From: Chloroflexota bacterium
Lineage (GTDB): Bacteria > Chloroflexota > Dormibacteria > CF-121
Reading direction: 5' to 3'
Length of the DNA: 64,000 nt
Assembly (NCBI GenBank): GCA_005880615.1
Contig: VBID01000115.1
Span: 16,431-80,430, forward strand
Shown one piece after another: positions 6,109 through 62,818 of this stretch. Under the pieces are notes generated by a model, which was given only the letters and a program-made list of their open reading frames with translations, ran no database searches and was not told the DNA's origin. A program made the translations under genes and the position numbers. How positions within the stretch are numbered: position 1 is the stretch's first letter; every line of letters begins with the position of its first letter.

Positions 6109-6148
6109 GAGACCCCCACCCGACCTCCCCCGCAACGGGGGAGGAGAA
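6109..6148. repeat. GC-rich hairpin element copy (GAGACCCCCACCC..CCTCCCCC-GCAAC-GGGGGAGG) between convergent genes
   Basis: Perfect inverted repeat preceded by a C-tract motif; same family as elements at 12534, 16676, 25799, 29861, 29992, 61024-61312 and 62771. Confidence 0.8.
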
Positions 6149-6179
6149 CTAGCCGGAGAGGGGAGTCGGAGACAGGAAC

Positions 6180-7016
6180 CTAGTAGATGTCTTCTTTGCG
6201 GGAATCTTCGTCGACTTCGGGGAACTCGAGGGTGGTTTCGGTTTCCCCCTCCTCGACGGTGTGCATCCCTTCCAGCTCTTCGGACTCCGGAGCTTCCTCT
6301 TCGGTTTCTTCCGGGTCCACCGAACGGGCGATGAGAGACTCCTTGGCGTAGGGGCGGAACTCTTCGCGGCCCCGCTTGATAGGGAAGGACGGCTTGCCGT
6401 AGAACTTCGGGTCCTGGTAGGTCTCCCGGACGATGAGCTTGACGGCGTTGCCCTCACAGCTGGCCACGGCGCCCGCGTACTGGTTGCCGCCTTGCATGAA
6501 CTTGATCAGCCGGCGACCCATGGCGTGTTCCAGGTGCCCCAGGGTCACCCCCCGGACGCTCTCCACGTTCAGGGTGTCCCCGGCGACGACCAGCTTCACC
6601 GGCTCGCCGCCGGTCACCTTGCTGCAGGGATCGGCATCGTTGTGGACGTGCAGGCCGGTCAGGATGCTCTTGCCCATCTCCTCGATGAAGAGATCGACGC
6701 CCACCTGGGTCTGGCCGGTGGGAACCTGCTCCTTCCGCTCCCGCCAGGCACGCAGTTTGGCCATGTTCTTCTGGGCGATCTGGTTGAGCGGGTTCACCTT
6801 GAGGGCGCCCTCGTAGGCCGCCAGGGCGTCCTCCACCCGGCCCAGCTCGGTGTAGGCCTTGCCCAGCCGGTTGAGCGTCTCCTCGTCGGGGCCGAACCGG
6901 TCCAGGATGGCCCGATTCAGCTCGACCGCATTCGCCCACTTGCTGGCCAGGGCCACCTCGATGGCCTCATCGACGTACTGGGAGCGGGGTTTCACCCGTT
7001 CGGCGTACTCTGCCAC
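6180..7016 (-). CDS. TPR-repeat protein with an uncharacterised C-terminal domain and acidic tail
   Basis: N-terminal TPR-like helices (LNRLGKAYTELGRVEDALAAYEGALKVNPLNQIAQKNMAKL), a ~150-aa central domain of unknown family, and a Glu-rich C-terminus. Confidence 0.6.
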   Translation of the reverse strand: MAEYAERVKPRSQYVDEAIEVALASKWANAVELNRAILDRFGPDEETLNRLGKAYTELGRVEDALAAYEGALKVNPLNQIAQKNMAKLRAWRERKEQVPTGQTQVGVDLFIEEMGKSILTGLHVHNDADPCSKVTGGEPVKLVVAGDTLNVESVRGVTLGHLEHAMGRRLIKFMQGGNQYAGAVASCEGNAVKLIVRETYQDPKFYGKPSFPIKRGREEFRPYAKESLIARSVDPEETEEEAPESEELEGMHTVEEGETETTLEFPEVDEDSRKEDIY

Positions 7017-7201
7017 GGTCTTTGCCTTCCTCCTGTGCGCGTATACCCTACGGGCGGTCCAGAAGTGTTGTCAAGCGATCAAGTAGGGTTCCCGTCCTGC
7101 CACAACGTCAAACCCGCTCGGCTCTTGTGAGCCCGCGCCGGCGCATTATTAAGAGGTATTAGAGAGGGGCGTCCGCCGGCCAATTTCGAATTGGACTCAA
7201 A

Positions 7202-7230
7202 TTGACAGAGGTAGGGCAACCGTGTATAAA
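7202..7230 (+). promoter_or_regulatory. sigma-70-like promoter (TTGACA-17 bp-TATAAA) upstream of the liv operon
   Basis: Near-consensus -35/-10 with a 17-bp spacer inside an unusually AT-rich island (7141-7260) in a ~70% GC context; ~65 nt upstream of the livJ-like ATG, which carries an AGGAGG RBS. Confidence 0.5.
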
Positions 7231-7294
7231 AGGCTCGCAATTCTCGGGACTGTATTCTTGCGTCAACACGACAGTAATAGGTAGGAGGAAGGGT

Positions 7295-8560
7295 ATGAAT
7301 AGCCCCAAGTTGCTAGCCGGGCTCGCGGTCACGGGCCTGATCCTAGCGGCCTGCGGCGGGGGTGGGACGACCACCCAGACGATCAAGGGGACGATCAAGA
7401 TCGGTATTGACCTGCCGGTCACTGGCGAGGATGCGTCGGATGGACTGCCCGCCCAGCAGGGGGGGAAGCTGGCCATCACCCAGAAAGGCAAGGTGTGCGG
7501 CGCGTCCAGCCACGCGGACGCCTGCTTTACCCTGACTGCCTTCCCGCTGGACGACGCCGTCAACGGCGTCCACGATCCCAAGCAGGGCGCCGCCAACGTC
7601 CAGCAGTTCGTCGCCGACTCGGCGGTGCTGGGCATGATGGGGCCGTTCAACAGCTCGGTCGCCCGGGCCGAGATCCCGATTGCCAACAGCGTCAACCTGA
7701 CCATGGTCAGCCCATCCAACACGAATGAGTGCCTGACCCAGGAGCCCGCGGACGGCCACTGCAAGGGCCAGGCGAAGATCCTTCGCAACAACAGCACCAA
7801 GAACAACTACTTCCGGGTCTGCACCACCGACCTCATCCAGGGTCCGGCGGCGGCCGACTACGCCTACAACAAGCTGGGCAAGAAGAAGGTCTACATCCTG
7901 AATGACCAGCAGACCTACGGACTGGGCATCGCCCAGAACTTCGCCAAGCAGTTCGCGGCGGATGGCGGCACGGTGCTCAACACGGACCTGGGCGGGTTCG
8001 ACCCGACTGCCACGACCGACTTCAAGTCGAAGCTGACCCAGGCTGCCTCGTTGGGCGCCGACGTGGTCTTCTTCGGCGGCACCACCGCCACCAAGGGCGG
8101 GGTCATTCGCAAGCAGATGAAGGGCATCCTGGACGTCCCGTACGTGGCCGGTGACGGCATCTCGGGCGACCAGTTCCTGAAGGACGCGGCGCCCAACGCC
8201 GCCAACAGCTACTTCACGGTGGCAGGCCCCTACGCCAGCCAGCTGCCCACAGCCACGGCCATGATCGCCGCCTACAAGACGGCCTTCGGCACCGACATCG
8301 GCGCCTACAGCGCCCAGGGCTACGACGCGGTGGGCGTGATCATCGCGGCCATCAGCCGGGCCGTCGACGACGCCGGCGGCAACATGCCGACCCGTGACCA
8401 GGTCACGGCCGAAATGCTGAAGACTACGACCTACTCAGGTGCCATGGGCACATTCGGCTTCGACGGCAATGGCGACACCACGCTCAAGATCATTACCGTC
8501 TACAAGTGGAACCCCGATACGGGAAAGTCCGACTACGCCGACCAGGTGACCGTCAAGTAG
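7295..8560 (+). CDS. livJ: branched-chain amino-acid ABC transporter substrate-binding lipoprotein (LivJ/LivK family)
   Basis: Start at internal ATG with AGGAGG RBS 6 nt upstream. MNSPKLLAGLAVTGLILAACGGG has a signal peptide and lipobox. Type I periplasmic-binding fold; followed by livHMGF. Confidence 0.85.
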   Translation: MNSPKLLAGLAVTGLILAACGGGGTTTQTIKGTIKIGIDLPVTGEDASDGLPAQQGGKLAITQKGKVCGASSHADACFTLTAFPLDDAVNGVHDPKQGAANVQQFVADSAVLGMMGPFNSSVARAEIPIANSVNLTMVSPSNTNECLTQEPADGHCKGQAKILRNNSTKNNYFRVCTTDLIQGPAAADYAYNKLGKKKVYILNDQQTYGLGIAQNFAKQFAADGGTVLNTDLGGFDPTATTDFKSKLTQAASLGADVVFFGGTTATKGGVIRKQMKGILDVPYVAGDGISGDQFLKDAAPNAANSYFTVAGPYASQLPTATAMIAAYKTAFGTDIGAYSAQGYDAVGVIIAAISRAVDDAGGNMPTRDQVTAEMLKTTTYSGAMGTFGFDGNGDTTLKIITVYKWNPDTGKSDYADQVTVK

Positions 8561-8581
8561 GATCCGGGCGTTGACAGCGAC

Positions 8582-8612
8582 GGGGCAGGGCGTTGGCCCT
8601 GCCCCGTTTCTT
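8582..8612 (+). terminator. intrinsic (attenuating) terminator between SBP gene and permease genes
   Basis: GGGGCAGGGC-GTTG-GCCCTGCCCC followed by GTTTCTT. Confidence 0.7.
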
Positions 8613-8680
8613 GCTCCGGGTGGGGGCCGGGCGACCCTTGGCGCTACACTGGGCAGCAACCAAAAGCGGGAAGGGGACGG

Positions 8681-9592
8681 GTGAAGTTCTTCGTCGACCA
8701 GCTGGTGCTGGGGCTGACTAACGGGGCCATCTACGCGCTGATTGCGCTGGGCTACACGCTGGTCTACGGGATCATCGAGCTGATCAACTTTGCCCACGGG
8801 GACGTGTTTACGGTCGGGGGAATTATCGGGCTGACGCTGATCGGCATTTTTCGCCTGGAGCACCTCTCCCCGGCGCTGCTGGTGCCGGCCGTGATCCTGC
8901 TCTTCGCCGCCACCATGACCATCACCGGGTTCCTCGGGGTGGCGATCGAGCGGCTCGCCTACCGGCCGCTTCGCAACGCCCCCCGCCTGGCCCCCCTGAT
9001 CACGGCGGTCGGGGTCTCCTTCGTGCTGGAAGGCATCCTCTTTATGGTCAAAGGCGCCAACCAGATCTCCTATCCGAATTTGCTGCCGTCGGGCAAGATC
9101 GGAGGCGGCGCCTTCGAGATCGGCATCACCAACCTGATCATCATCATCATTGCCCTCGTCCTGATGGTCGGCCTGCACCAGTTCATCCAGCGCACCCGGA
9201 TCGGACGCGCCATGCGGGCCACCGCTCAGGACCGGGACGCGGCCCGGCTGATGGGCATCGATATCAACCGCACCATCGCCATCACCTTCTTCATCGGTTC
9301 GGCGCTGGCGGCAGCCGGCGGCATCATCTTCGGCTTCTACTACCAGTCGATCGTCTTCGACCAGGGTTTCGAGGCAGGCCTCTTCGCCTTCACGGCCGCC
9401 GTGTTCGGCGGCATCGGCAACGTGATCGGCGCCTCCCTGGGCGGGTTCGTGATCGGCTTGATCCTGACCTTCGTGGCCGGCTACTGGTCCGGCGGCTTGC
9501 AGTGGGCCAGCGTGGTGGTGTTCAGCATCCTGATCCTGACCCTGGTCTTCCGGCCCACCGGACTGCTGGGGATGCGGGTAGCGGAGCGATGA
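8681..9592 (+). CDS. livH: branched-chain amino-acid ABC transporter permease LivH
   Basis: MKFFVDQLVLGLTNGAIYALIALGYTLVYG... is the canonical LivH N-terminus; multi-TM; GTG start. Confidence 0.9.
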   Translation: MKFFVDQLVLGLTNGAIYALIALGYTLVYGIIELINFAHGDVFTVGGIIGLTLIGIFRLEHLSPALLVPAVILLFAATMTITGFLGVAIERLAYRPLRNAPRLAPLITAVGVSFVLEGILFMVKGANQISYPNLLPSGKIGGGAFEIGITNLIIIIIALVLMVGLHQFIQRTRIGRAMRATAQDRDAARLMGIDINRTIAITFFIGSALAAAGGIIFGFYYQSIVFDQGFEAGLFAFTAAVFGGIGNVIGASLGGFVIGLILTFVAGYWSGGLQWASVVVFSILILTLVFRPTGLLGMRVAER

Positions 9593-10734
9593 GCCGCTCC
9601 AAGGGCGGTCTCCTCGAGCGCCTTGCCCAGCTCCCCCCCAAGAGTCTGCGCGCCTTCGCCACCGACACGCGGGTTCCCGGGATCGGACTCGGCCTCGTCC
9701 TGGTCCTGTTTCCGCTCCTCGATCCCAACAAGTCGCACGTGAACGTGGCCGCGGATGCGGGAACGTTCATCCTACTGGCGCTGGGGCTGAACATCGTGGT
9801 CGGGTTCGCCGGGCTGCTGGACCTGGGGTACGCCGCCTTCTTCGCCATCGGATCCTACGCCTACGCCATGCTGGCCTCCGGTCAGTTCAACATCCACATC
9901 CCCTTCTGGTTCCTGCTGCTGACCTCGGCTTTCACCGCCGCGTTCTTCGGAGTGCTCCTGGGCGCCCCCACACTCCGGCTGCGGGGCGACTACCTGGCTA
10001 TCGTCACCCTGGGATTTGGCGAGATCGTGCCGCGGGTCTTCAAGAACGCTTCCACCTTCACGGGCGGAGTCAACGGGATCGTCGGCCTCGACCAGCCGAG
10101 CTTCCCCCACGTCCTCGGGTTCCCCGGGTACAAGTTCGGGTTCAACCCCGTCCCCTACTACTTCCTCATCCTGGCCATCCTGCTGCTCTCGGTGGTCCTG
10201 ATCAGCAACCTGCGCGACTCGCGCCTGGGCCGTGCCTGGATGGCGATCCGGGAGGACGAGGTGGCGGCGGCCTCGAACGGGATCAACACCGTCACCACCA
10301 AGCTGCTGGCCTTCGCCATGGGCGCGGCCTTCAGCGGCTTCGCCGGCACCTACGCGGCATCCAAGCTCTTCATCGTCAGCCCGGATGACTTCGGCTTCGT
10401 CGTCTCCGTCTCCATCCTGGTCATGATCGTGCTGGGCGGGATGGGGAACCTGCGGGGGGTGATCGTGGGCGCCGTGCTCATTTTCTTCATCCAGCGCTAC
10501 CTGCTGATCCAGCTGCCGGGCTGGATCGCCGCGCTGACCGCCAACATCCCATTCCTGGCCTCCGTCGACGTTGCCGGCTACGTGCAGCGGTCGAACTACC
10601 TGATCTTTGGCCTGATCCTGGTGTTCACCATGTTGCTGCGACCGCAGGGCCTGATCCCCAGCGCCCAGCGCAAGATCGAGCTCGAGCTGGGAACGACCGA
10701 GGAGGCGGTGGCCGACCTGCGGGGGTCGGCGTGA
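9589..10734 (+). CDS. livM: branched-chain amino-acid ABC transporter permease LivM
   Basis: ATGA overlap with the livH stop; GLNIVVGFAGLLDLGYAAFFAIGSY... matches LivM. The ORF track's upstream extension overlaps livH and is rejected. Confidence 0.85.
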   Translation: MSRSKGGLLERLAQLPPKSLRAFATDTRVPGIGLGLVLVLFPLLDPNKSHVNVAADAGTFILLALGLNIVVGFAGLLDLGYAAFFAIGSYAYAMLASGQFNIHIPFWFLLLTSAFTAAFFGVLLGAPTLRLRGDYLAIVTLGFGEIVPRVFKNASTFTGGVNGIVGLDQPSFPHVLGFPGYKFGFNPVPYYFLILAILLLSVVLISNLRDSRLGRAWMAIREDEVAAASNGINTVTTKLLAFAMGAAFSGFAGTYAASKLFIVSPDDFGFVVSVSILVMIVLGGMGNLRGVIVGAVLIFFIQRYLLIQLPGWIAALTANIPFLASVDVAGYVQRSNYLIFGLILVFTMLLRPQGLIPSAQRKIELELGTTEEAVADLRGSA

Positions 10735-11593
10735 GCGCAATCCTGGAGGTGCGGTCGCTGACCAAGCGGTTCGGCGGCCTGGTGGCGGTCAGCAACGTGA
10801 ACTTCAGCATCGAGGCCGGCGAGATCTTCGCCATGATCGGCCCCAACGGGGCCGGCAAGACCACCTGCTTCAACATGATCGCCGGCCTGTACAAGCCCAG
10901 CGGCGGCGAGATCGCCTTCAATGGGACCGGCATCTATCCGGACCGCGATTTCTGGGTGAATTACCTGCCCCCGCTGGCCATCTATTACACGGCCATGGGC
11001 GCCGTCCGGCGCGCCATTGGGCTGGGCCCGGTGCCAATCGGGCTTCGGCCCCACGCCGTGACCAAGCTGGGGGTGGCCCGCACGTTCCAGAACATCCGGC
11101 TCTTCTCCTACATGACGGCCCTGGAGAACGTCATGGTGGGCCAGCACGCGCGGATGCACGCCCAGCTCTGGGACGCCCTGCTGCGGACCCCGTCGTCCCA
11201 GCGCGAGGAGCGGAGGGTCCGGGACCGGGCCCGGGAACTCCTTCGGTTCGTCGGGATCGAGCGGCACGCCGACGATTACGCGCGCAACCTGCCCTACGGC
11301 TTCCAGCGCCGACTGGAGATCGCCCGCGCGCTGGCCAGCGACCCCAAGCTCCTGATGCTGGATGAGCCCGCGGCCGGCTTCAACCCGCAGGAGAAGGCGC
11401 AGTTGATGGGGCTGATCCAGCAGATCCGGGCCCAGGGCATCACCATTTTCCTGATCGAACACGACATGAAGGTGGTCATGGAAATTTCGGAACGCATCGT
11501 CGTCCTGGATTACGGCGAGAAGATCGCTGAGGGGCCGCCGGCCAAGGTGCGGACCGACCCGAAGGTGATCGAGGCCTACCTGGGGAAGGGCGC

Positions 11594-11597
<4 letters not shown>
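10731..11597 (+). CDS. livG: branched-chain amino-acid ABC transporter ATP-binding protein LivG
   Basis: Walker A GPNGAGKTT, ABC signature, and the LivG-specific insertion; GTG start overlapping the livM stop. Confidence 0.9.
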
Positions 11598-12316
<719 letters not shown>

Positions 12317-12362
12317 CCGTCTAAGCCCGAATCCAAGCTTGCACAAGCGGTAAGCTAGCGCC

Positions 12363-12503
12363 ATGCATCTCCTCTTCGAAATGGCGGCCTACGCGATCAC
12401 CACGGCGATCACGCCCAGGAAGATCATCGCGGGCGTCGTCCTGCTGATCATCATCGTCGCCATCGGCGTCTGGTGGGCCAGGCGCCAGAAGCCCACACCC
12501 TAG
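12363..12503 (+). CDS. possible small membrane protein (46 aa)
   Basis: ATG..TAG ORF MHLLFEMAAYAITTAITPRKIIAGVVLLIIIVAIGVWWARRQKPTP; single TM helix plus basic tail; below the ORF-track size cutoff; no clear RBS. Confidence 0.25.
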   Translation: MHLLFEMAAYAITTAITPRKIIAGVVLLIIIVAIGVWWARRQKPTP

Positions 12504-12526: not shown

Positions 12527-12660
12527 ACTCTTCGAGACCCCCTCCCCAACCCTCCCCGCAAGGGGGAGGGAGAGTGAATGGCTCCGCCCAAGGGGGAGGG
12601 AGAGAAAGAGACGAGACCCCTCCCTGCTCTCCCCGCCAACGGCGAGGGGTTCTTGAAACA
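12527..12660. repeat. cluster of three GC-rich hairpin element copies downstream of liv operon
   Basis: GAGACCCCCTCCCCAACCCTCCCCGCAAGGGGGAGGGAGAG, then CTCCGCCCAAGGGGGAGGGAGAG, then GAGACCCCTCCCTGCTCTCCCCGCCAACGGCGAGGGG; lies between convergent genes. Confidence 0.8.
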
Positions 12661-16675: not shown

Positions 16676-16714
16676 AATACCCCCACCCCACCCTCCCCGC
16701 AAGGGGGAGGGAAA
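16676..16714. repeat. GC-rich hairpin element copy inside the manC-gmd intergenic spacer (same operon)
   Basis: ACCCCCACCCCACCCTCCCCGCAAGGGGGAGGGAAAGG. Confidence 0.8.
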
Positions 16715-25755: not shown

Positions 25756-25788
25756 ACTACGACCCGGCGCATCGCCGGGTCGTAGTCG
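25756..25788 (+). terminator. lon terminator hairpin
   Basis: GACTACGACCCGGCG-CAT-CGCCGGGTCGTAGTC is a perfect 15-bp stem; it is immediately followed by a GC-rich hairpin element copy (25799-25833). Confidence 0.7.
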
Positions 25789-25857
25789 TGATTGCAGGGC
25801 CACCCCCACCCCTACCCTCCCCTGGGGGAAGGAGAATCTTGGAGGACAATCCACTAA

Positions 25858-28556: not shown

Positions 28557-29588
28557 ATGAACGGTTACGATTTGCGGACCATGGGCTCCCCCAAACCCCG
28601 CGTGTTTTCCGGCATCCAGCCCAGCGGCGGGTTGCACCTGGGCAACTACCTGGGCGCCATCCGCAACTGGGTCCGCGACCAGGACAAGTACGACAACATC
28701 TTCTGCGTCGTCGACCTGCATGCGATGACCCTACCCTGGGATCCGAAGCTCCTCCGGGAGAACACCCTCCAGGTGGCGGCCGTCTACCTGGCCTGCGGCA
28801 TCCGCCAGGACACCTCCACCATTTTTGTCCAGTCGCGGATCCCGGCCCACTCCGAGCTGGCCTGGATCCTCACCTGCCTGACCCCGATGGGCTGGCTGGA
28901 GCGGATGACCCAGTTCAAGGAGAAAAGCGCCGGCGAGCAGCGCGAACGGGTGGGCACCGGCCTGCTGACCTACCCGGCGTTGATGGCCGCCGACATCCTG
29001 CTGTACGAAACCAATTTCGTGCCGGTCGGCGAGGACCAGCGCCAGCACATCGAGTACACTCGCGACATTGCCCAGCGGGTCAATCAGCGATTCGGCCAGG
29101 TCCTCACCCTGCCCGAGGCCCTGATTCCCAAGGCAGGCGCCCGGATCATGGGACTGGACGACCCGGAACGGAAGATGAGCAAGACCCTGGCCCAGGCGAA
29201 TCCGGGCCATGCCGTCTTCCTGACCGACCCGCCGGAGGTGATCCGCAAGAAGTTTGCCCGCGCCCAAACCGACGCCGAGCCCGCCGTTCGCTTCCCGCCC
29301 GGCCCGGGAGTCGCCAACCTGCTCCAGATCTACCAGTCGGTCACGGAAACGACGGCCGAGAACCTGGAGCGCACCTTCGCCGGCAAGTCGTACAACGAGC
29401 TCAAGCAGGCCGTGGCCGAAGCCGTCATCGCGGCCCTGCGCCCCATCCAGGAGCGCTATCGTGAGATCCGGTCCGACGACGCGCAACTGGTCCGCGACCT
29501 GGACCGGGCGGCCGACCGGCTGGCGGTGACAGCCAACGCGACGCTGGCGCGCGTGCAGCGGGTGACGGGATTGCTGGGCCATGACTAA
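28557..29588 (+). CDS. trpS: tryptophanyl-tRNA synthetase
   Basis: Class I aaRS: FSGIQPSGGLHLGNY (HIGH-like), KMSKT. Start at ATG 28557 or 28581; the upstream part of ORF 28476..29588 overlaps the divergent flippase gene. The TAA stop is the first three bases of MITE copy B. Confidence 0.9.
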   Translation: MNGYDLRTMGSPKPRVFSGIQPSGGLHLGNYLGAIRNWVRDQDKYDNIFCVVDLHAMTLPWDPKLLRENTLQVAAVYLACGIRQDTSTIFVQSRIPAHSELAWILTCLTPMGWLERMTQFKEKSAGEQRERVGTGLLTYPALMAADILLYETNFVPVGEDQRQHIEYTRDIAQRVNQRFGQVLTLPEALIPKAGARIMGLDDPERKMSKTLAQANPGHAVFLTDPPEVIRKKFARAQTDAEPAVRFPPGPGVANLLQIYQSVTETTAENLERTFAGKSYNELKQAVAEAVIAALRPIQERYREIRSDDAQLVRDLDRAADRLAVTANATLARVQRVTGLLGHD

Positions 29589-29745
29589 GCCCGGATCCGC
29601 CGATCGGACGACGCAGATTGGGATGCGGGACGAGCTGAGCGGAAGGAAGCGACCAGCACGCGCAGGCGCCCTGGCAGCGGCTGAGCCTGGTCAATCCCGA
29701 CCAGGACTGCGCTAGCTCGTTGCTGGCGGTGGAGGGAGCCGTCGG
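29586..29745. mobile_element. MITE-like element, copy B (left TIR intact, right TIR degenerate)
   Basis: TAAGCCCGGATCCGCCGATCGGACGACGCAGATTGGGATGCGGG... shares >85% identity over the first ~60 bp with copies C and D. Confidence 0.7.
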
Positions 29746-29769: not shown

Positions 29770-30045
29770 GGAGGCGGATCAGAGGCAGATCGCCGCGCAC
29801 GCCGCTCAAGCTAAGCGGTCTTCCGAGTAAGTTCTGCTCGAGGTGCGGACCTTTGTCCAGGGACACCCCCACCCCTACCCTCCGCGCAAGGGGGAGGGAG
29901 AGTTAAGGTCGGAAGCAGATCGCCGCGTATGCTGCTCGAGCCAAGCGGTCTACTGGGTAAGTTCTGCTCGAGGTACGGGCCTTACTCCAAGGACACCCCC
30001 ACCCTTGCCCCTGCCCGCAAGGGAGAGGGAGAGGGGAAGGCGGCA
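29770..30045. repeat. two tandem ~130-bp units, each ending in a GC-rich hairpin element
   Basis: CAGATCGCCGCGYAYGCYGCTCRAGCYAAGCGGTCTWCYGRGTAAGTTCTGCTCGAGGTRCGGRCCTTWSTCCARGGACACCCCCACCC...GCAAGGG.GAGGGAGAG appears twice consecutively. Confidence 0.75.
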
Positions 30046-36367: not shown

Positions 36368-36721
36368 GCCCGGATCCGCCGATCGGACGACGCAGCTTGG
36401 GATGTCCGGCGAGATGAGCGGTAGGAGGCGACGAGCACACGCAGGAGCGCACCTGAATGGTGCCTAACCGAGCGCGCGCAGGAGACGACACCCGGAGCCC
36501 GGGGCCGTCGGACGAACGAAGCAGATTGGGATGCGGGGCGTGCCGAGCCGCAGGAGGCGACGAGCACGCGAGGGAGCGCATCCGTCGATGCGTGACTGAG
36601 CGCGCGCAGGAGACGACGCCCGGATCGGCCGCAGCCGCGCCCAAGATGCGAGTTTGTTCCGGCGGCCTCGGGCTCAGCTCGCCCGGCGCCCAGGAGGCAA
36701 GTTCGATTCGGTGGATTCGGC
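36365..36721. mobile_element. MITE-like element, copy C (two internal ~125-bp tandem units)
   Basis: Left TIR TAAGCCCGGATCCGCCGATCGGACGA; right TIR (reverse complement) GGCCGAATCCACCGAATCGAAC; ~90% identical to copy D throughout. Confidence 0.8.
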
Positions 36722-39136: not shown

Positions 39137-39213
39137 TGGTGCCCTCGGCAGGACTCGAACCTGCGACGCCCGCCTTAGGACGGCGGCGCTCTGGTCCCCT
39201 GAGCTACGAGGGC
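39137..39213 (-). tRNA. tRNA-Arg (anticodon CCT), CCA encoded
   Basis: Reverse complement GCCCTCGTAGCTCAGGGGACCAGAGCGCCGCCGTCCTAAGGCGGGCGTCGCAGGTTCGAGTCCTGCCGAGGGCACCA. 7-bp acceptor stem, D arm GCTC/GAGC, anticodon stem CCGCC/GGCGG with loop GTCCTAA, T-loop TTCGAGT. Confidence 0.9.
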
Positions 39214-39284: not shown

Positions 39285-39360
39285 TCGGGGCGTAGCTCAG
39301 CCAGGTTAGAGCGCACGGTTCGGGACCGTGAGGTCGGTGGTTCAAATCCACTCGCCCCGA
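39285..39360 (+). tRNA. tRNA-Pro (anticodon CGG)
   Basis: CGGGGCGTAGCTCAGCCAGGTTAGAGCGCACGGTTCGGGACCGTGAGGTCGGTGGTTCAAATCCACTCGCCCCGA. Acceptor CGGGGCG/CGCCCCG, anticodon loop TTCGGGA, T-loop TTCAAAT; no encoded CCA. Confidence 0.9.
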
Positions 39361-39445
39361 TTCTTCAAGATCGGATATTTGGGCTGCCAGGCGATCGTCG
39401 GCCACCATTTGGGTGATGGCCTCAGCCCACGCCGATTGCGAGACG

Positions 39446-56770: not shown

Positions 56771-57607
56771 TCAACCGGCGGCCGACTCCTCGCCGCGCGG
56801 AGCGGAGGCCAACCACGCCGTGTGCGCGCTGGCTACCACCTCAGACTTTCGCCGGATGTCGTCGTAATCCGAATCGCCGACCGGGACGAAGCGCTCGATC
56901 AGTCCCTCGGCCAGCCGCTCGCGAGCGCCGTCCTCGCCGTTGAGGCCGCACAGGGCCTCGCGAATGGCGGTCTGGACGTCGGCCGGCAGTTTGCTGGAGA
57001 CCACCACCGGGGGGATGGTCGATGGCCCCAGCACCTGGATCACCCGAATCTCGGACGCCAGTGCTGGGCGGCGCTTCAATTCGACGCCCAGGACGTGGGA
57101 ATCGATGGCCGAGGCATCGACCTTGCCGGCCAGCACCGCCTGCATCGACGCCAGGTGCGAACCGGAGTACATCACCCGCCCGAAGAACCGCTCGGTCTCC
57201 CCCAGCTGGAGGAGGTGGTAGCGGGTCAGGACACAGCCGGAAAACGACGTCGGTTGCGTATGCGCCCAGACACGATCACGCAGGTCCGGGAACTTGGCGA
57301 CCGGCCCGTTCCGCCGGACGATCACGTCCGAGAAGTAGATCGGCCGGCCATCGTACCGATGCTGGTTGACGACGGGGGCGGCGATGGCGCGGATCGGCGG
57401 GTCCGGACGCGCGGCCAGCCGCACGTAGGGCAGCCCGCAGAGGAAGGCAACGTCAACATGACCGCCCACCAGCGCCTCCTCGTCGGCCGTGTTCGCCAGC
57501 ACCCCGCCACGGCCCAGCAGCGTCCCCACCCGCTCGGCCACGTAGGCGTAGGCCGGCGTCATGTTGGGCGCCAGGAAGTTGGCGAAGACGAGCGCCGGAG
57601 GGGTCAC
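56771..57607 (-). CDS. PhnD/SsuA-like (phosphonate/phosphite-binding fold) protein without obvious signal peptide
   Basis: Periplasmic-binding-protein type-2 pattern. Start ambiguous (GTG 57607 or ATG 57559). The 5' 100 codons of ORF 56771..57922 are MITE copy D sequence, not coding. Confidence 0.5.
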   Translation of the reverse strand: MTPPALVFANFLAPNMTPAYAYVAERVGTLLGRGGVLANTADEEALVGGHVDVAFLCGLPYVRLAARPDPPIRAIAAPVVNQHRYDGRPIYFSDVIVRRNGPVAKFPDLRDRVWAHTQPTSFSGCVLTRYHLLQLGETERFFGRVMYSGSHLASMQAVLAGKVDASAIDSHVLGVELKRRPALASEIRVIQVLGPSTIPPVVVSSKLPADVQTAIREALCGLNGEDGARERLAEGLIERFVPVGDSDYDDIRRKSEVVASAHTAWLASAPRGEESAAG

Positions 57608-57643
57608 GACTTCGCGGAGTATCGCAGATTGGATACCCCATCC

Positions 57644-58005
57644 AAGCCCGGATCCACCGATCGGACGATGCAGCTTGGGATGCCCGGCGAGATGAGCGGT
57701 AGGAGGCGACGAGCACGCGAAGGAGCGCACCTGAATGGTGCGTGACTGAGCGCGCGCAGGAGACGACACCCGGAGCCCGGGGCCGTCGGACGAACGAAGC
57801 AGATTGGGAGGCGGGGCGTGCCGAGCCGCAGGAGGCGACGAGCACGCGAGGGAGCGCATCCGTCGATGCGTGGCCGAGCGCGCGCAGGAGACGACGACCG
57901 GATCGGCCGCAGCCGCGCCCAAGATGCGAGTTTGTTCCGGCGGCCTCGGGCTCAGCTCGCCCGGCGCCCAAGATGCAAGTTCGATTCGGTGGATCCGGGC
58001 TTAGG
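57644..58005. mobile_element. MITE-like element, copy D (two internal tandem units; best-preserved TIRs)
   Basis: Left AAGCCCGGATCCACCGATCGGACGA; right (reverse complement) AAGCCCGGATCCACCGAATCGAACT; internal hairpins GCACC-TGAAT-GGTGC and GCATC-CGTC-GATGC. Confidence 0.8.
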
Positions 58006-58181
58006 CCGCTTGGCGTGAAAATCCTTGCAAAAACACAACGGACCGTGGGATACTTCGGCACACCATCGACGCCAGTACGACAAACGACTGGGGCACGGCG
58101 ACCGGACCGATCATCGAGAATCCGCTCCACGGCGAGCGCGTCAGGTTCCTCAAGACGGTTCCGGAAACGGATGGTGAGCTG

Positions 58182-58652
58182 TTGCAGTACGAGTCCTGGC
58201 TTGCCCCGCAGGGCAGTGTGGGCGTCCCCCACGTCCATCCCGTCCAGGAGTCCCGGTTCCTCATTCTGGCTGGGCGTGCCAGCTTCATGGTGGACGGGCA
58301 CAGTCTCGAACTCGGACCTGGCGAGACCCTGACGGTCGGACCGCGCACCCCTCACTACCTCTGGAATGCGGCCGACACGGAAGCCCACCTGATCATCGAG
58401 TTTCGCCCCGGGCTGCTCAAGCAGGAGTACTTCGAGACTTCGTTCGGCCTGGCCCGCGACGGCCGGCTCAACCTGATTGGGATCCGGAACCTGTTGCAGT
58501 ACGCGGTGCTGACCGCCGCCTACCGCCATGAGAGCCGTCCGCTGAACCAGTCGCGCTGGGCCCATGCGGCTCTCGTCGGCCTGGCCCCGTTAGGCTGGCT
58601 GCTCGGGTACCGGGCCCACTACGCCCGCTACTGCACGCGCTCCGCCGACTGA
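58182..58652 (+). CDS. cupin-domain protein
   Basis: Cupin motif 1 G(x)5HxH(x)3E (GSVGVPHVHPVQESRFLILAG) and motif 2 (GETLTVGPRTPH). The frame is open back to ~58005 (ENPLHGERVRFLKTVPETDGE...) with no canonical start upstream of the TTG at 58182. Confidence 0.65.
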   Translation: MQYESWLAPQGSVGVPHVHPVQESRFLILAGRASFMVDGHSLELGPGETLTVGPRTPHYLWNAADTEAHLIIEFRPGLLKQEYFETSFGLARDGRLNLIGIRNLLQYAVLTAAYRHESRPLNQSRWAHAALVGLAPLGWLLGYRAHYARYCTRSAD

Positions 58653-58673
58653 CCGACCCACTACAGTAACCGG

Positions 58674-59837
58674 GTGTCAGAGGCTCGCCAGGACCTCGTC
58701 ATTGTCGGCAGCGGGATCATGGGCCTGTTTACGGCGTACTACGCGTCCCGTGCCGGGTCGACCGTCACCATCCTGGAGCGCTCCCGCATCGGCGATCCGC
58801 AAACGGCCTCCTTCTGCCTGACGCGTTCTATCCGCAGTGACTACCTCGACCCGCTATACGCCCGGCTCGCCTACGCCGCCCGCCAGCTGTGGCTCGACCT
58901 GCAGGCGGAGTCCGGCGAGCAGCTCGTGGTCAACTGCGGCTGCCTGAACCTGGCCAGGGAACGCGTGACCCCCGACCTGGGCCGGACCTACGCCGTGCAG
59001 AGCTTCCAAATCCTCAAAAGCCTCGGACTCAAAGCCGAGGCGTTCGACCGGGACGGCCTCCAGCGGCGGTTTCCCCAGTTCGACGCGGACCTGGGCCGGA
59101 TGGACGTAGAGGCCGGCTACCTGTTGGTCCCGGCCATCACCCGCACTCTTCGTTCCGCCCTCGGCAAGCAGAAGGTCACCATCGTGGAGGGGGTCATGGT
59201 AGAGGCCATCGCCGAGCGCGACGGTCGCGTCCGGATCGCCACCAGCCAGGGCGAGTGGGACGCCGGGTCGACGGTCCTGACGGCGGGACTGGGGACCAAC
59301 GACTTGCTGGCTCGGGTGGACGGCTGCCAGCTCGAGTTCCCCCTCCGACCGGACCGGCCCAGCCAGACCAAGTACTTGATTCCTCCGCCGGAGCAGCGGT
59401 CGCTCTTCACCGCTCCGGCTCTGCCGGTGTTCGCCTACCTGGACATCGGCGTCTACGGGCACCCCATGGTCCCCGGCGTGACGCCGGGCGTGAAGATCGG
59501 GTATTACAACCCGCCCGACGTGCGGAAGGCCGAAACGTTCATCCGCGACATCCGGGGCTTCATCGACGAGTGCATGCCATCACTGCGCGACGCGGAGGCC
59601 GTGGATGTGAAGGACGTCGACCAGTGTTCGTATGATCTGGTGGCGGATGATCACTTCATTTTGGGGGCCTTGCCCGGCTTCTCACGCATCCTGGTCGGGG
59701 TCGGCTGGCGCGGCACCGGGTATAAGTTCGGCCCGCTGGTGGGGCGCACCCTGATGCAGCTCGCGCTGGACGGCCGAACCGACTATGAGCTGGACGGGTT
59801 CTCCCCGGCTCGCTTTGTGAGCGCGCATGCCAGTTAA
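58674..59837 (+). CDS. FAD-dependent oxidase, monomeric sarcosine oxidase/N-methyltryptophan oxidase-like (DAO family)
   Basis: DLVIVGSGIMGLFTAYYASRAGSTVTILER dinucleotide-binding motif; C-terminal GWRGTGYKFGPLVG. GTG start; 11-nt overlap with the downstream methyltransferase gene. Confidence 0.75.
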   Translation: MSEARQDLVIVGSGIMGLFTAYYASRAGSTVTILERSRIGDPQTASFCLTRSIRSDYLDPLYARLAYAARQLWLDLQAESGEQLVVNCGCLNLARERVTPDLGRTYAVQSFQILKSLGLKAEAFDRDGLQRRFPQFDADLGRMDVEAGYLLVPAITRTLRSALGKQKVTIVEGVMVEAIAERDGRVRIATSQGEWDAGSTVLTAGLGTNDLLARVDGCQLEFPLRPDRPSQTKYLIPPPEQRSLFTAPALPVFAYLDIGVYGHPMVPGVTPGVKIGYYNPPDVRKAETFIRDIRGFIDECMPSLRDAEAVDVKDVDQCSYDLVADDHFILGALPGFSRILVGVGWRGTGYKFGPLVGRTLMQLALDGRTDYELDGFSPARFVSAHAS

Positions 59838-60855
59838 GGGCATCCTGGAGCGGCTCCAGCAGGGCGTCGTCCTGGGCGCCGAGGGTTACGTGTTCGAGCT
59901 GGAGCGGCGCGGGTATATCAAGGCGGGCCCCTACGTCCCCGAGGTCGTCCTGGATTCCCCGGACGCGCTGAAAGAGCTGCACCGGGAGTTCCTCCGCGCC
60001 GGCGCCGAGGTGATGGTGGCCCTGACCTACTACGCGCACCGGGACAAGCTGAAGACCGTCGGTCGGGAGGGGGACCTGGAACGCCTGAACCGGCAGGCCG
60101 TGCGGCTGGCCCGCGAAGTGGCCGCCGAGGGCGATGCCCTGGTGGCCGGCAACATTTGCAACACCTGGGCCTACGACCCGAAAGACAAGACGGCCAGCTC
60201 CCGCGTCGTGCGCGCCATGTACGCCGAGCAGCTCGGCTGGGCGGCCGAGGAGGGGGTCGACTTCGTCATCGCCGAGACCAACGACTACCTGGGCGAGGCG
60301 CTGATCGGCCTGGAGGTGATCAAGGACCTGGGACTGCCGGCCATGGTCACCCTGGCCTCCACCCATCCGGGAGAAACCTGGGACGGGTACGACTACGTGG
60401 AAGCCTGCCAGATCCTGGCCGAGCATGGCGCGGACATCGTGGGTCTCAACTGCGACCGGGGCCCCGCCACCATGGTGCCGATCATCGAGCGGCTGCGGGC
60501 AACGGTGCCCGGCTACATTGCCGCCCAACCAGTTCCGTACCGGACGACGCCGGCCACGCCAACGTTCGAGACGCTGCGAGCCGACGGGAGTGGCCGCGCC
60601 TTCCCCCTGGCCCTGGAGCCCTTCCTCTGCACCCGATTCGACATGGCTGACTTCGCCCGGCAGGCAAAGGGCCTGGGGGTCAACTACATCGGCATTTGTT
60701 GCGGCGGCTCGCCCCACTACGTGCGGGCGATGGCGGAGGCGCTCGGCCGGACCGTTCCCGCCAGCCGCTACTCCCCCGCCATGGAGCTCCATCCCATGCT
60801 CGGCGGCCAGGTCGAGGAGAAAGAAGCCGCCTTCCTGCCCGACTGGAAAGACTAG
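59827..60855 (+). CDS. homocysteine S-methyltransferase-family protein (BHMT/MmuM-like, Zn-dependent)
   Basis: S-methyl_trans (Pfam) fold pattern: GAEGYVFELERRGY..., ...GLNCDRGP..., Zn-binding GICCGGSP. 342 aa. Confidence 0.8.
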   Translation: MPVKGILERLQQGVVLGAEGYVFELERRGYIKAGPYVPEVVLDSPDALKELHREFLRAGAEVMVALTYYAHRDKLKTVGREGDLERLNRQAVRLAREVAAEGDALVAGNICNTWAYDPKDKTASSRVVRAMYAEQLGWAAEEGVDFVIAETNDYLGEALIGLEVIKDLGLPAMVTLASTHPGETWDGYDYVEACQILAEHGADIVGLNCDRGPATMVPIIERLRATVPGYIAAQPVPYRTTPATPTFETLRADGSGRAFPLALEPFLCTRFDMADFARQAKGLGVNYIGICCGGSPHYVRAMAEALGRTVPASRYSPAMELHPMLGGQVEEKEAAFLPDWKD

Positions 60856-61020
60856 AACTTTCGTCCCGTTGGATGGGGCTTAGACCCCATTGTTTTGGGC
60901 CGCCGAAATTGTCTATAACCAGATTGGAGGCGACCGCTGCTAGGATCAGCCGGGCGCACCCCCTATCAGATCGTCCCGGTGGAGCGGTGCGGGTCGCCTC
61001 CCCAAACGCCCTTGTCGCTC

Positions 61021-61340
61021 TGATTCCCTCCCGCTTGCGGGAAAGCCCTTTTTCTCCCTCCCTTAGCGGAATGCCTTTTCTCCCTCCCCCTTGCGGGGAG
61101 CCACTGTCGTCAGGGTCGCGGGATTTCCCGCGTGGGCAGGGTTGGGAACGGGGTCTCGGTCACCTCGCATTAGGAGACTGGCTTGACCACGATTATCAAG
61201 ATGATGGCCAGCACGATCACTAGGAGCAGGGCCTGTTTTTCCGTCCTCCTTGCGGGGAGGCCTCTTTCTCCCTCCCCCTTGCGGGGAGGGTTGGGGAGGG
61301 GGTCTCGGTGACCTCGCGTTAGGAGACTGGCTTGACGACC
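61021..61340. repeat. array of GC-rich hairpin elements plus a ~180-bp tandem partial duplication of the 3' end of the downstream membrane-protein gene
   Basis: GGGGTCTCGGTCACCTCGCATTAGGAGACTGGCTTGACCACGATTATCAAGATGATGGCCAGCACGATCAC (61150-61222) repeats as GGGGGTCTCGGTGACCTCGCGTTAGGAGACTGGCTTGACGACCATCATGAAGATGATGGCCAGCACGATCAC (61298-61372). Three or more CCCTCCC...GCGGGGAG hairpins precede and separate them. ORF 61170..61538 is a remnant encoding only the C-terminal ...LLLVIVLAIILIIVVKPVS. Confidence 0.75.
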
Positions 61341-61771
61341 ATCATGAAGATGATGGCCAGCACGATCACGATGAGGATGATGCCGACCCGCTGTGCCTGC
61401 GCAGCCAACCGCTGATAGGCCGGCGAGGACTCCCCTTCCTTCTCGAGCACCTCGATCTGGCGGTTCATGGTCCGCGAGTAGAAGCCAACCGCCACCACGA
61501 TCAACAGAACGAATAGGAAGAGCGAGGAGATGATCCACCGCTTGAATCCCCAGCCCCCGACCCAGACCAGGGCGAGACCCGTCAGCAGCAGCAGGCCGTA
61601 AGCGGGATTCGCCACCCTCCGGTCGAGAAAGCTGACCCCGCGCAGGGCAAAGGACAGGTGTTCCTTTTCCCTGGCGCCTCTGGTGTTCCAGACCGCATAC
61701 GTGATGTTGGTGCCAACCGCCGTGATCCCCAGCAGCACATGGATGTACTTGAGCAGGAGATACCAGGTCAT
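61319..61771 (-). CDS. small 4-TM integral membrane protein (DUF2269-like, tentative), paralog 2
   Basis: MTWYLLLKYIHVLLGITAVGTNITYAVW...IIFMMVVKPVS (150 aa). The start ATG overlaps the stop of paralog 1 (ATGA). The upstream 326 codons of ORF 61319..62749 overlap paralog 1 out of frame and are rejected. Confidence 0.7.
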   Translation of the reverse strand: MTWYLLLKYIHVLLGITAVGTNITYAVWNTRGAREKEHLSFALRGVSFLDRRVANPAYGLLLLTGLALVWVGGWGFKRWIISSLFLFVLLIVVAVGFYSRTMNRQIEVLEKEGESSPAYQRLAAQAQRVGIILIVIVLAIIFMMVVKPVS

Positions 61772-62226
61772 AGGGATGGTTTCACCACCATCATAAAGAC
61801 AATCGCCAGAATGATCGGCAGGGTGGCCACTCCAAAGCTGGTGGCCCGCGCCGCGGCGGCCTTGTAGTGCACCGATTGGGCGCCTTCGAGTTCGATCGCC
61901 TCCACCTGGCGCGTCAGGGCGGGGGTGTAGAAAACCAGGCCCACAATCAGCAGGGCGACGTACAGGATGATCGCCGCTGAGATCCAGTGCCGCTGCAGTC
62001 CCCAGTGGCCGACCGCCTGCAGGGTGAGCCCGGTCAGGAGCAGCAGGAGGTAGCAGGGATTCGCCACGCGGTCGTCGATTAACTTGATGGTGCGAAGCAC
62101 GAAGCCCTCGTGTTCCGGCGCCCGGCTGACGATGGCGCCCTGCCAGATACCGTACGTCAGATTCGAGCCGACCGCCGTCATGGCCAGCAGCACGTGGACG
62201 TACTTCAGCAGGCTGTACCAGCTCAC
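61768..62226 (-). CDS. small 4-TM integral membrane protein (DUF2269-like, tentative), paralog 1
   Basis: MSWYSLLKYVHVLLAMTAVGSNLTYGIW...IVFMMVVKPSL; ~45% identical to paralog 2. Confidence 0.7.
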   Translation of the reverse strand: MSWYSLLKYVHVLLAMTAVGSNLTYGIWQGAIVSRAPEHEGFVLRTIKLIDDRVANPCYLLLLLTGLTLQAVGHWGLQRHWISAAIILYVALLIVGLVFYTPALTRQVEAIELEGAQSVHYKAAAARATSFGVATLPIILAIVFMMVVKPSL

Positions 62227-62269
62227 GCCACCCTCCCAGCTCCCTTGCCTCGTTAGAATAGCCGCCGGG

Positions 62270-62731
62270 TTGCGCGCCTACCACTTTCGAACTGACTGGG
62301 CGTTCAAGGCGCCGCTGGCCACGGTGTGGTCCGTGGTGCTTGACATCGAACACTATCCGGCGTGGTGGTCGAACTTTCGCCGCGTCCGAGTCCGCAGGGG
62401 CGATGGCAAATCCGCGGGCTCGCTCATCGACTGCGAGGTCCGAGGCTCGCTCCCGTACAGTCTGAACTACGCGCTCGAGGTTATGAACGCCGACCCCATG
62501 CGGTCGATCGATTTGCGTTCGACCGGCGACCTGGTGGGGACCGGCCGCTGGGAGTTCGCGGAGAAGGCGCCCCGTGACATCCTGGCTACCTACTTCTGGG
62601 ACGTGGGTACCACGAACCCCGTCCTCAACCTGGTCGCCCCCCTGGCCCGCGGGCTGCTGGCGAAAAATCACGAGCAGGTGATGGCCAACGGCTTCGCCGC
62701 CCTCCGCCAACACGCGGAAGCAACTACCTGA
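62270..62731 (+). CDS. SRPBCC-superfamily protein (polyketide cyclase/dehydrase-like, START/Bet v1 fold)
   Basis: YHFRTDWAFKAPLATVWSVVLDIEHYPAWW is the hallmark N-terminus of Polyketide_cyc2 proteins. TTG start at 62270; the upstream ORF portion overlaps the divergent membrane-protein gene. Confidence 0.7.
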   Translation: MRAYHFRTDWAFKAPLATVWSVVLDIEHYPAWWSNFRRVRVRRGDGKSAGSLIDCEVRGSLPYSLNYALEVMNADPMRSIDLRSTGDLVGTGRWEFAEKAPRDILATYFWDVGTTNPVLNLVAPLARGLLAKNHEQVMANGFAALRQHAEATT

Positions 62732-62770
62732 CTGAATCTCCCCGTTCATCCCCCGCCCGTCAGGCGAAAA

Positions 62771-62818
62771 TCTCCCTCCCCCTCAGGGGGAGGGTCGGGG
62801 TGGGGGTGTCGAGTGACT
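62771..62818. repeat. GC-rich hairpin element copy (reverse orientation) between convergent genes
   Basis: TCCCTCCCCCTCAGGGGGAGGGTCGGGGTGGGGGTGTCG. Confidence 0.8.

Follow-up and report, generated by a model that had tools for sequence, protein, structure and literature searches.

We analysed 64,000 nucleotides of contig VBID01000115.1 from a Chloroflexota bacterium (assembly GCA_005880615.1, positions 16,431 to 80,430 of the forward strand), a stretch with a GC content of 67% that we call the window. Scattered between its genes are at least nine copies of a short structured repeat, 35-41 nt long and distributed over seven intergenic regions. In the element, a linker of 2-3 nt joins a C5-[A/T]-C3-5 tract to the hairpin CCCTCCCC-GCAAG-GGGGAGGG, with 5' flanks GAGAC, GACAC or AATAC and 3' flanks AGAG or AAAG; its G strand, 41 nt in length, reads CTCTCCCTCCCCCTTGCGGGGAGGGTTGGGGAGGGGGTCTC. 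We have high confidence that the window holds a dense, fast-evolving population of repeats of the BoxC/PIT/triplex-motif class, in a new sequence variant of this known class, and we propose DUF559 nucleases as their candidate partners.

The 21-nt core of the element, CCCTCCCCGCAAGGGGGAGGG, is matched nine times in the window at up to three mismatches, against 0.00 matches expected from dinucleotide-preserving shuffles. Five copies are perfect over the whole architecture, from C tract and linker through pyrimidine arm and loop to the purine arm, against 0.32 in shuffles, and flanking sub-motifs of the element are enriched as well. A sequence-only reading of this DNA had described a ~40-nt dispersed repeat with nine or more intergenic copies in both orientations, which these counts and a direct reading of the copies bear out. 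Its account of the hairpin needs correction: instead of a perfect 8-9-bp GC stem with a GNRA-like GCAA loop, the stem has 8 bp including one T-A pair, and the loop has 5 nt (GCAAG/CTTGC) and is not a GNRA tetraloop.

Genes of the window were mapped by third-codon-position GC content and Pfam. The element copies and their neighbours are the following.

6109-6148, + strand: solo element in the C-strand form with a shifted arm; third tract CCCCCACCC at 6113-6121, linker GA, hairpin CCTCCCCC-GCAAC-GGGGGAGG at 6124-6144; begins 2 nt past the stop of a DUF2087 gene, with a TPR gene on the other side, convergent
12534-12574, + strand: perfect element with the T variant of the third tract, GAGACCCCCTCCCC-AA-CCCTCCCC-GCAAG-GGGGAGGG-AGAG; spacer of a 46-aa open reading frame (ORF)/ABC ATPase (+) and a DUF5656 gene (-)
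12580-12650, + strand: two units in decay behind the perfect copy; at 12580-12604 only a hairpin is left, and at 12613-12650 a full unit survives in degenerate form
16676-16714, + strand: perfect element between manC and gmd, which both lie on the - strand
25799-25836, + strand: element in the spacer of lon and an MFS gene; its hairpin has the loop deleted and reads CCCTCCCC-T-GGGGGAAGG
29862-29902, + strand: element with a single stem mismatch (CCCTCCGC), in the 3' part of unit 1 (29779-29908) of a 130-nt tandem duplication
29992-30033, + strand: decayed element, in the 3' part of unit 2 (29909-30040) of the same duplication
61021-61160, - strand: three units reduced to the hairpin (61021-61102), followed by a third-tract remnant (61134-61160) that a hairpin-containing insert of 37 nt has displaced; unit B of a 149-nt tandem duplication
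61237-61306, - strand: one hairpin-only unit (61241-61261) and a perfect copy of the T variant (61270-61306), 12 nt past the stop of a DUF2269 gene
62770-62810, - strand: perfect-architecture element with loop CTGAG, CCCTCCCCC-TGA-GGGGGAGGG; spacer of an mgsA/rarA-like gene and the DUF2269 gene, both on the - strand

Every element copy in the window lies between genes. Four of the regions lie between convergent genes, three between genes on the same strand (manC-gmd included) and none between divergent genes; several copies sit 1-30 nt past a stop codon. The copy in the manC-gmd spacer, singled out by the sequence-only reading, is indeed there, and since both genes are on the minus strand, an mRNA running across it would carry the G strand of the element. 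Direct reading of the sequence finds no T tract after the hairpin at any window copy, so that none has the form of an intrinsic terminator. There are no inverted element pairs in the window. At the gathering threshold, Rfam 15 returned only two tRNAs from the window, and the element matches no described RNA family.

Immediately past lon and a short way 5' of the decayed copy there, positions 25759-25790 hold a further perfect 12-bp hairpin, ctacgacccggc-gcat-cgccgggtcgtag; it resembles a terminator lacking a T tract. Putative small hydrophobic ORFs or ORF fragments (46 aa, ending in ...VVLLIIIVAIGVWWARRQKPTP) are found immediately 5' of element copies at 12363-12503 (+) and 61170-61232 (-).

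Architecture, mirror symmetry and folding

The anatomy of the element was established on 203 exact-core copies with enough flanking sequence. The C tract lies 2-5 nt upstream of the hairpin in 137 of them and 9-41 nt upstream in 35; it is absent in 31. Where the tract is displaced, a GC hairpin of variable sequence nearly always stands in between. Read on the C strand, the tract is interrupted by an A in 121 copies, by a T in 15 and by a G in one.

The tract (5 C, A/T, 3-5 C) is a mirror of the pyrimidine arm of the hairpin (3 C, T, 4-5 C). On the G strand the element thus reads CCCTCCCCC-TTGC-GGGGAGGG-N3-GGGG[T/A]GGGGG, that is C stem, loop, G stem 1, short loop and G stem 2. In the antiparallel register, the T or A of stem 2 sits opposite the sole A-T pair, and the two triads allowed at that position, T·A-T and A·A-T, match the interrupting bases seen. 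Five window copies fit exactly the architecture of an intrastrand triplex of the class II purine motif: pyrimidine stem, 3-6-nt loop, purine stem, short loop, mirror purine tract, a layout defined for G·G-C, A·A-T and T·A-T triads.

Arm and tract covary. Arms with a single T go with tracts with a single interruption, arms with two go with doubly interrupted tracts, and the mirror is kept in the further variants CCTCCCCC/CCCCCTCC, CCCTCTCCC/CCCTCACCC and CCTCTCCCC/CCCCTCTCC. A perfect mirror of its own class is found upstream of 0.43-0.58 of strand instances, against 0.00-0.03 for the mirror of the other class and at most 0.07 in the downstream control. As each hairpin is counted on both strands, the former figure means that roughly 90% of hairpins are accompanied by a mirror tract on one side.

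In ViennaRNA, which does not model triplexes, the stem has a folding energy of -19.5 to -20 kcal/mol as RNA. With the G-quadruplex (G4) option, the program predicts a G4 as the minimum-energy fold of the G strand; its energy is -25 to -35 kcal/mol, that of the hairpin -20 to -22 kcal/mol. Intact copies, GGGGAGGG-N2-3-GGGG[T/A]GGGGG, also follow the canonical pattern of four runs of at least 3 G spaced 1-7 nt apart, although this is a match to a sequence pattern only. The G strand thus agrees with the earlier reading, but a view of the C tract as no more than a G4/i-motif tract is not supported: the tract mirrors the hairpin arm and covaries with it.

As single-stranded DNA, the G strand could fold into a hairpin, an intrastrand purine-motif triplex or, alternatively, a G4; the folding state in vivo is one we infer. 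A pyrimidine-motif (C+·G-C) triplex on the C strand or on RNA was considered as the main structure and rejected, since the A found in the majority of third tracts is a mismatch there while on the G strand it gives a legal T·A-T triad.

A known repeat class, its spread and its turnover

The architecture is that of TMECO, CCCTCNCCC-N3-6-GGGNGAGGG-N3-GGGNGAGGG, which is the BoxC repeat of E. coli (Bachellier, 1990s) and the PIT element of Hoyne & Maher (2000), as described by Holder et al. (2015, PMC4666352). Across 262 proteobacterial genomes TMECO was counted 3610 times; its copies are highly identical, lie between genes in every case, show no strand bias and at times form inverted pairs; the triplex motif was reported from many Proteobacteria, including Bradyrhizobium, Caulobacter and Methylobacterium (PMC4666352). 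In vitro, TMECO oligonucleotides form a stable purine-motif intrastrand triplex, and not a G4, by circular dichroism and nuclear magnetic resonance (NMR). The motif is tied to local genomic variability (deletions, rearrangements), and no transposase, integrase or other mobility-related gene was found near its sites (PMC4666352). The published TMECO regular expression has no match in the window; with a purine stem of 8 nt and its A one position off, the window element is a sister variant, not TMECO sensu stricto.

A scan of one genome per species places the exact 21-mer at no fewer than 120 loci, mostly in Alphaproteobacteria (Bradyrhizobium, Rhodopseudomonas, Devosia, Mesorhizobium, Microvirga, Caulobacter, Phenylobacterium, Hyphomicrobium). 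It is also carried by Longimicrobiaceae, Candidatus Dormibacterota, Planctomycetota and one gammaproteobacterium, as well as by Gemmatimonadota and Deinococcus. The upstream tract ACCCCCACCCC, which lay outside the query, is present at most of these genome loci. By BLAST, the core occurs in 104 plasmid records, including those of Rhizobium, Sinorhizobium, Deinococcus, Methylobacterium and Pannonibacter, a 351-kb plasmid of the latter bearing at least 40 element sites; among the plasmid matches listed, none lies under an annotated gene. The core is found on 58 viral contigs too, and the window-type variant at 116 loci or more in a metagenome scan.

The suggestion that this is a REP/BIME-type element (repetitive extragenic palindrome/bacterial interspersed mosaic element) specific to its lineage is thus only partly borne out. 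The repeat is dispersed, structured and REP-like, and it is enriched at gene 3' ends, but its exact core and C tract recur in several phyla: it is not lineage-specific. A literature search on the exact element sequences returned nothing relevant. Br-REP1/2 of Bradyrhizobium, tried as the identity of the element, differ from it in sequence.

Relative to flanking genes, the element shows no preferred orientation, with 49 C-sense and 48 G-sense copies at the genome loci and 13:20 at the soil loci that carry the window-type variant. The sense-strand bias of the window copies (8 of 9) was tried as evidence for termination and dropped; given these two larger, unbiased samples, it is due to chance. 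Divergent spacers are depleted in both sets (13/147 and 13/83, respectively), and convergent spacers are enriched in the soil set (37/83). Within 600 nt of each other, the fetched loci hold 35 inverted pairs, 24 of the '-+' and 11 of the '+-' type.

Tandem arrays differ in unit length: they are present in loci L220, L187 and L282, with units of 45, 48 and 80 nt, and the units of the window have 130 and 149 nt. Some copies had been called tandemised from the outset. Arrays do exist, yet two of the window sites are duplications that include a gene 3' end together with the element. In the 130-nt duplication (29779-30040), the ORF tail ...QIAAHAAQAKRSSE is recopied as ...QIAAYAARAKRSTG, with the last ~15-20 codons and the element. 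In the 149-nt one (61021-61375), the DUF2269 tail ...VIVLAIIFMMVVKPVS is recopied as ...LVIVLAIILIIVVKPVS along with the element, the last ~20 codons of the gene being copied at 61168-61230. Arrays of flank plus element were also seen in L282 and 5' of the DUF559 gene of L361, where 5' gene fragments are duplicated.

Two soil-metagenome contigs (L001, L002) that are 99.97-99.99% identical to the window show no element polymorphism relative to it. The window proteins are on deposit under a Chloroflexota metagenome-assembled genome, and close relatives bear the label Candidatus Limnocylindria. Loci L366 and L367, syntenic with the window at ~93% nucleotide identity, have elements at the same intergenic sites in other states. 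The manC-gmd site holds a simple copy in the window and the subtype with the 37-nt insert in the ~93% relatives; the lon-MFS copy, intact in L366, lacks its loop in the window; and the array beside the DUF5656 gene differs in composition in L367. Such differing states at orthologous sites match the instability reported for BoxC.

Apart from this element, the window contains another dispersed GC-rich repeat of ~200 nt, at 36480-36690 and 57760-57970 (~97% identical) with a partial copy at 29583-29666. It is present in L366 as well (3830-4035), between MarR and phosphoribosyltransferase genes, where the window has no copy. This is probably the first repeat family of the sequence-only reading, and it could be a mobile element or a non-coding RNA. 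The two tRNA genes form a divergent pair, tRNA-Arg(CCT) at 39137-39213 (-) and tRNA-Pro(CGG) at 39285-39361 (+).

DUF559 genes beside the element

Two inverted pairs ~430 nt apart enclose an ORF that encodes a DUF559 protein (PF04480, E = 8e-39 and 8e-32). A tblastn search of the fetched loci found ten DUF559 genes, eight of them with an element within 250 nt. Five are bracketed on both sides (L011, L024, L079, L236, L295), in the order hairpin-G tract, gene, C tract-hairpin, and some of the flanking copies were not the matches that had retrieved their locus. The flanked proteins are bona fide DUF559 members (NCBIfam YcjD model, E = 1e-29 to 1e-35; PDB 3HRL, 7e-35). The profile has a weaker match to PDB 3R3P, the catalytic domain of homing endonuclease I-Bth0305I, and no meaningful match between DUF559 and the PADLOC defence families was obtained.

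A homologue search returned 2678 proteins, and the tails were read in the best 120. In 108 of these, the C-terminal tail is a translation of the element, and all three frames are used (...TPTPxPSPQGGG, ...TPTPxLPTRGRE, ...TPTPTPPHKGEG), so it is the DNA that is conserved and not the peptide. At the N terminus, 34 of the best 120 read through an upstream copy. Many of them are orthologues at a single alphaproteobacterial locus, sdhA-DUF559-sdhB (L298, L299-L301, L302-L306), where the element is nearly invariant while the protein drifts to 65-79% identity. There, in several Alphaproteobacteria, DUF559 and its flanking repeats interrupt the succinate dehydrogenase operon and keep this position.

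The association extends to viral contigs and plasmids; overall, it spans at least four phyla and gene neighbourhoods unrelated to one another. From a set of 44 viral loci picked by DUF559 alignment alone, we read the best 30: pyrimidine/purine hairpins lie within ~150 nt of the gene end(s) in about 22 and on both sides in about 15, and seven more have imperfect hairpins as judged by eye, each group with its own covarying variant. All ten plasmid DUF559 loci examined carry lineage-specific C-stem/G-stem/G-stem motifs within 250 nt, on both sides in eight; they come from Deinococcus (two), Neisseria gonorrhoeae, Picosynechococcus, Pseudanabaena, Synechocystis, Azospirillum, Sinorhizobium, Sphingomonas and Photobacterium.

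On the cyanobacterial plasmids L354 and L355, DUF559 genes are flanked by pure-run variants, CCCCC(C)-TAG-CCCCC(C)-AATTCT-GGGGG(G). These are probably the G/C-rich triplex motifs that Holder found to be abundant in Microcystis, Nostoc and Anabaena (PMC4666352).

A metagenome-assembled genome with the gene order of the window and ~93% nucleotide identity to it (GCA_035635515.1) encodes two DUF559 proteins, P0178 and P0256. Both genes have window-type elements on their flanks, among them the subtype with the insert that the window shows at 61077-61158.

In Caulobacter, the DUF559 protein VsrA is damage-inducible, itself damages DNA in vivo and triggers the SOS response (PMC12907096, 2026). Among the viral-contig loci (L315-L339), many element-flanked DUF559 genes have the alphaproteobacterial LexA/SOS box GAAC-N7-GAAC ~60-100 nt 5' of their start, between a divergent gene and DUF559; these boxes fit a damage-inducible VsrA.

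In E. coli MG1655, the last codons of the DUF559 gene ycjD (...SPSP*) are encoded by a hairpin resembling BoxC. A full BoxC follows after 165 nt, and it is listed among the TMECO sites as lying between fabI and ycjD (PMC4666352). A 23-nt piece of the ycjD 3' coding end, gaatattctccagcaccgtctcc, is duplicated in the interval from ycjD to this BoxC (L297, 5339-5361 and 5441-5463), a duplication of the same kind as those of gene end plus repeat in the window.

Of 5426 complete E. coli genomes, 5409 carry BoxC (median copy number 15) and 3378 carry ycjD, a single-copy gene. In a sample of 60 evenly spaced genomes, the 37 with ycjD have a median of 18 BoxC copies (range 11-27) and the 23 without it a median of 4 (range 1-15), a difference with a Mann-Whitney p of 4e-10, uncorrected for phylogeny. 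The ycjD-negative locus was inspected as a possible excision footprint and proved uninformative: a TetR/RND efflux block replaces ycjD, with no BoxC at the junction.

Weighing the association against known systems

We lean towards an explanation in which these BoxC/PIT-class repeats are non-autonomous and have the DUF559 nuclease as their cognate enzyme, much as REPs have the REP-associated tyrosine transposase (RAYT). That they are the cognate repeats of DUF559 nucleases is a view we hold with moderate confidence. The unit would be the 8-bp pyrimidine/purine GC hairpin with a mirror tract 2-5 nt away, in some copies with a variable extra hairpin between the two. Such elements would be non-coding and unable to move by themselves, and would persist at gene 3' ends because they are tolerated there. 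The cognate enzyme would be a low-copy DUF559 nuclease (Vsr-like, PD-(D/E)XK fold) with its gene bracketed by inverted copies, as RAYT genes are by REPs. Were this nuclease to act at or near the folded element, subsequent repair or replication restart might produce tandem arrays, element replacement and dispersal; if the hairpin influences transcript 3' ends at all, it would do so only secondarily.

A broader proposal, which we put forward tentatively, with the balance tipping slightly to the other side, is that triplex-motif repeats and DUF559 could constitute a second bacteria-wide repeat-enzyme system comparable to that of RAYT and the REP doublets called REPINs, with the nuclease maintaining or propagating hundreds of solo copies. 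Its repeats would comprise E. coli BoxC, the GCAA variant, the cyanobacterial C5-6/G5-6/G5-6 variant and the rhizobial CCCTCTCCCC variant.

Several points weigh against DUF559 as the cognate enzyme. The link between gene and element is correlative, and the E. coli difference may reflect phylogenetic confounding; moreover, ycjD sits in the variable fabI-sapF segment. The best 120 homologues are not independent, since most are orthologous at sdhA-DUF559-sdhB. DUF559 loci L166 and L176 and the distant low-GC homologues L340-L350 have no element, and the window has no DUF559 gene, nor a RAYT or other transposase among its proteins. Gene-less inverted pairs, tried as deletion derivatives of a DUF559 cassette, contain no DUF559 remnants (E > 0.9), and no target-site duplications were seen by eye at the borders of inverted pairs, where no systematic search was made. 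VsrA is taken by its authors as a T:G mismatch-repair (very short patch) endonuclease (PMC12907096). Dimethyl sulfate footprinting detected no TMECO triplex in vivo, and in earlier work cited in the same study PIT had no promoter, terminator or polymerase effect in vivo (PMC4666352).

The relationship could run in the reverse direction, with DUF559 as a free-standing, homing-endonuclease-like selfish gene that lands in or near pre-existing repeats, or is stabilised there, the repeats themselves being independent. We think this unlikely. It agrees with the profile match to the I-Bth0305I domain (3R3P), with the position of the gene inside conserved operons such as sdhA-sdhB, where free-standing homing genes are also found, and with BoxC persisting at 1-15 copies in E. 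coli without ycjD; gene-less inverted pairs devoid of remnants could be empty sites. Active homing is at odds, however, with a gene that is single-copy per genome and vertically kept at its locus. That the gene of each lineage bears its own repeat variant, and that BoxC number falls without ycjD, fit a maintenance role for the nuclease and are compatible with homing too.

It is decidedly unlikely, in our judgement, that the copies are factor-independent terminators ('I-shaped', without a U tract) or 3' hairpins protecting against exonucleases, their repetition reflecting convergent use of one good hairpin. The sequence-only reading had taken most copies as terminator-like, between convergent genes and without a T tract; four of the seven regions are indeed convergent and the T tract is missing throughout, but orientation is unbiased and no terminator activity is known for E. 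coli PIT. The strong enrichment downstream of genes with depletion between divergent ones, the copies close behind stop codons and the stability of the stem would suit such a role, which E. coli REP hairpins are known from the cited literature to play. The 3'-end enrichment is, however, equally expected from purifying selection against promoter insertions, and one copy lies inside the manC-gmd operon spacer. A terminator needs neither a third tract nor mirror symmetry nor near-identity across phyla, and E. coli PIT/BoxC lacks terminator activity according to work cited in PMC4666352.

A hairpin/G4 (or i-motif) switch, in which GGGG-A-GGG-N3-GGGG-T-GGGGG forms a three-tetrad G4 for local regulation of transcription, translation or replication, strikes us as quite improbable. 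All intact copies do have the canonical G3+N1-3 pattern, ViennaRNA puts the G4 below the hairpin in energy, and the long central loop that holds a hairpin in 35 of 203 copies is compatible with it. Nevertheless, a G4 requires G runs only, and leaves unexplained the mirror covariation of arm and tract, the class with GG/GGG runs interrupted every 1-2 nt (CCTCTCCC) and the restriction of interruptions to A or T. In addition, the sister motif TMECO is a triplex and not a G4 by NMR (PMC4666352), and random orientation to genes allows no consistent G4 at the RNA level.

A classical REP/REPIN moved by RAYT (a Y1 HUH enzyme), or a miniature inverted-repeat transposable element moved by an insertion-sequence transposase, is hardly credible: the elements are short, palindromic, intergenic and high-copy, with inverted pairs of both types and BIME-like arrays, but they have no GTAG/CGTC head and no target-site duplications were seen, a RAYT, the gene that the sequence-only reading proposed to look for, is missing from the window proteins, as are transposases there and near TMECO sites (PMC4666352), and the gene between inverted copies elsewhere is DUF559, whose PD-(D/E)XK fold makes it neither a HUH nor a DDE enzyme.

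DUF559 nucleases as partners of the repeats therefore remain our favoured explanation. To our knowledge, the BoxC/PIT/triplex-motif repeats have been known since the 1990s without known origin, partner gene or function, and we know of no role assigned to DUF559 (YcjD in E. coli), one of the commonest bacterial domains of this kind. If the proposal is true, both would gain a function after ~30 years as orphans; if the link is functional, it would be the second case of a domesticated nuclease with an intragenomic repeat population, involving another protein fold and another DNA structure (a mirror-repeat triplex). Bracketing across phyla, variants proper to each lineage and an E. coli repeat number that tracks ycjD make it a testable hypothesis joining the two. 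The subject also bears on genome instability, strain typing, and assembly and annotation artefacts, such as ORFs extended through the repeat with tails ...TPTPNPSPQGGG. Taken alone, the window is a more modest finding, namely an uncultured soil lineage of Chloroflexota in which a known repeat class is very dense and evolves fast.

Compared with BoxC/PIT/TMECO, the window element has the same order of C stem, 3-6-nt loop, G stem 1, ~3-nt loop and mirror G stem 2, and shares strict intergenic location, lack of strand bias, inverted pairs, high copy identity and local instability. It differs by its single A-T pair (CCCTCCCC/GGGGAGGG), GCAAG loop and G4-T/A-G5 third tract, by a subtype with a hairpin inside loop 2, and by a much higher density (9 sites within 64 kb, where an entire E. 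coli genome has ~15-23). It also occurs outside Proteobacteria (Chloroflexota, Gemmatimonadota, Dormibacterota, Planctomycetota, Deinococcota), and published work on BoxC names no associated gene.

The G4CT repeats of Xanthomonas and Nostoc (PMC4692102) and the potential quadruplex sequences of Deinococcales and Thermales (PMC6200779) are likewise G-rich sequences dispersed between genes, and a G4 potential is predicted for one of their strands. Unlike our element, they are tandem simple repeats or isolated potential quadruplexes, with no complementary C arm, mirror symmetry or described gene.

The flanked proteins share their domain with the Vsr/DUF559 nucleases E. coli YcjD, N. gonorrhoeae 3HRL, 3R3P and Caulobacter VsrA, none of which is tied to a repeat element in the literature searched; within it, we found no paper on a link between DUF559 and repeats.

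Finally, the element differs from REP/REPIN-RAYT (Nunvar 2010; Bertels & Rainey 2011; Ton-Hoang 2012) in that it has no GTAG/CGTC head and carries a third mirror tract that REPs lack, and in that the bracketed gene encodes DUF559 (Vsr-like, PD-(D/E)XK), a putative repeat-acting enzyme, instead of a HUH Y1 transposase. The two arrangements are alike in their short GC-rich intergenic palindromes, present in hundreds of copies as singlets, inverted doublets and arrays, in a single-copy gene placed between inverted copies of the lineage's own variant, and in the lower number of repeats where that gene is absent.

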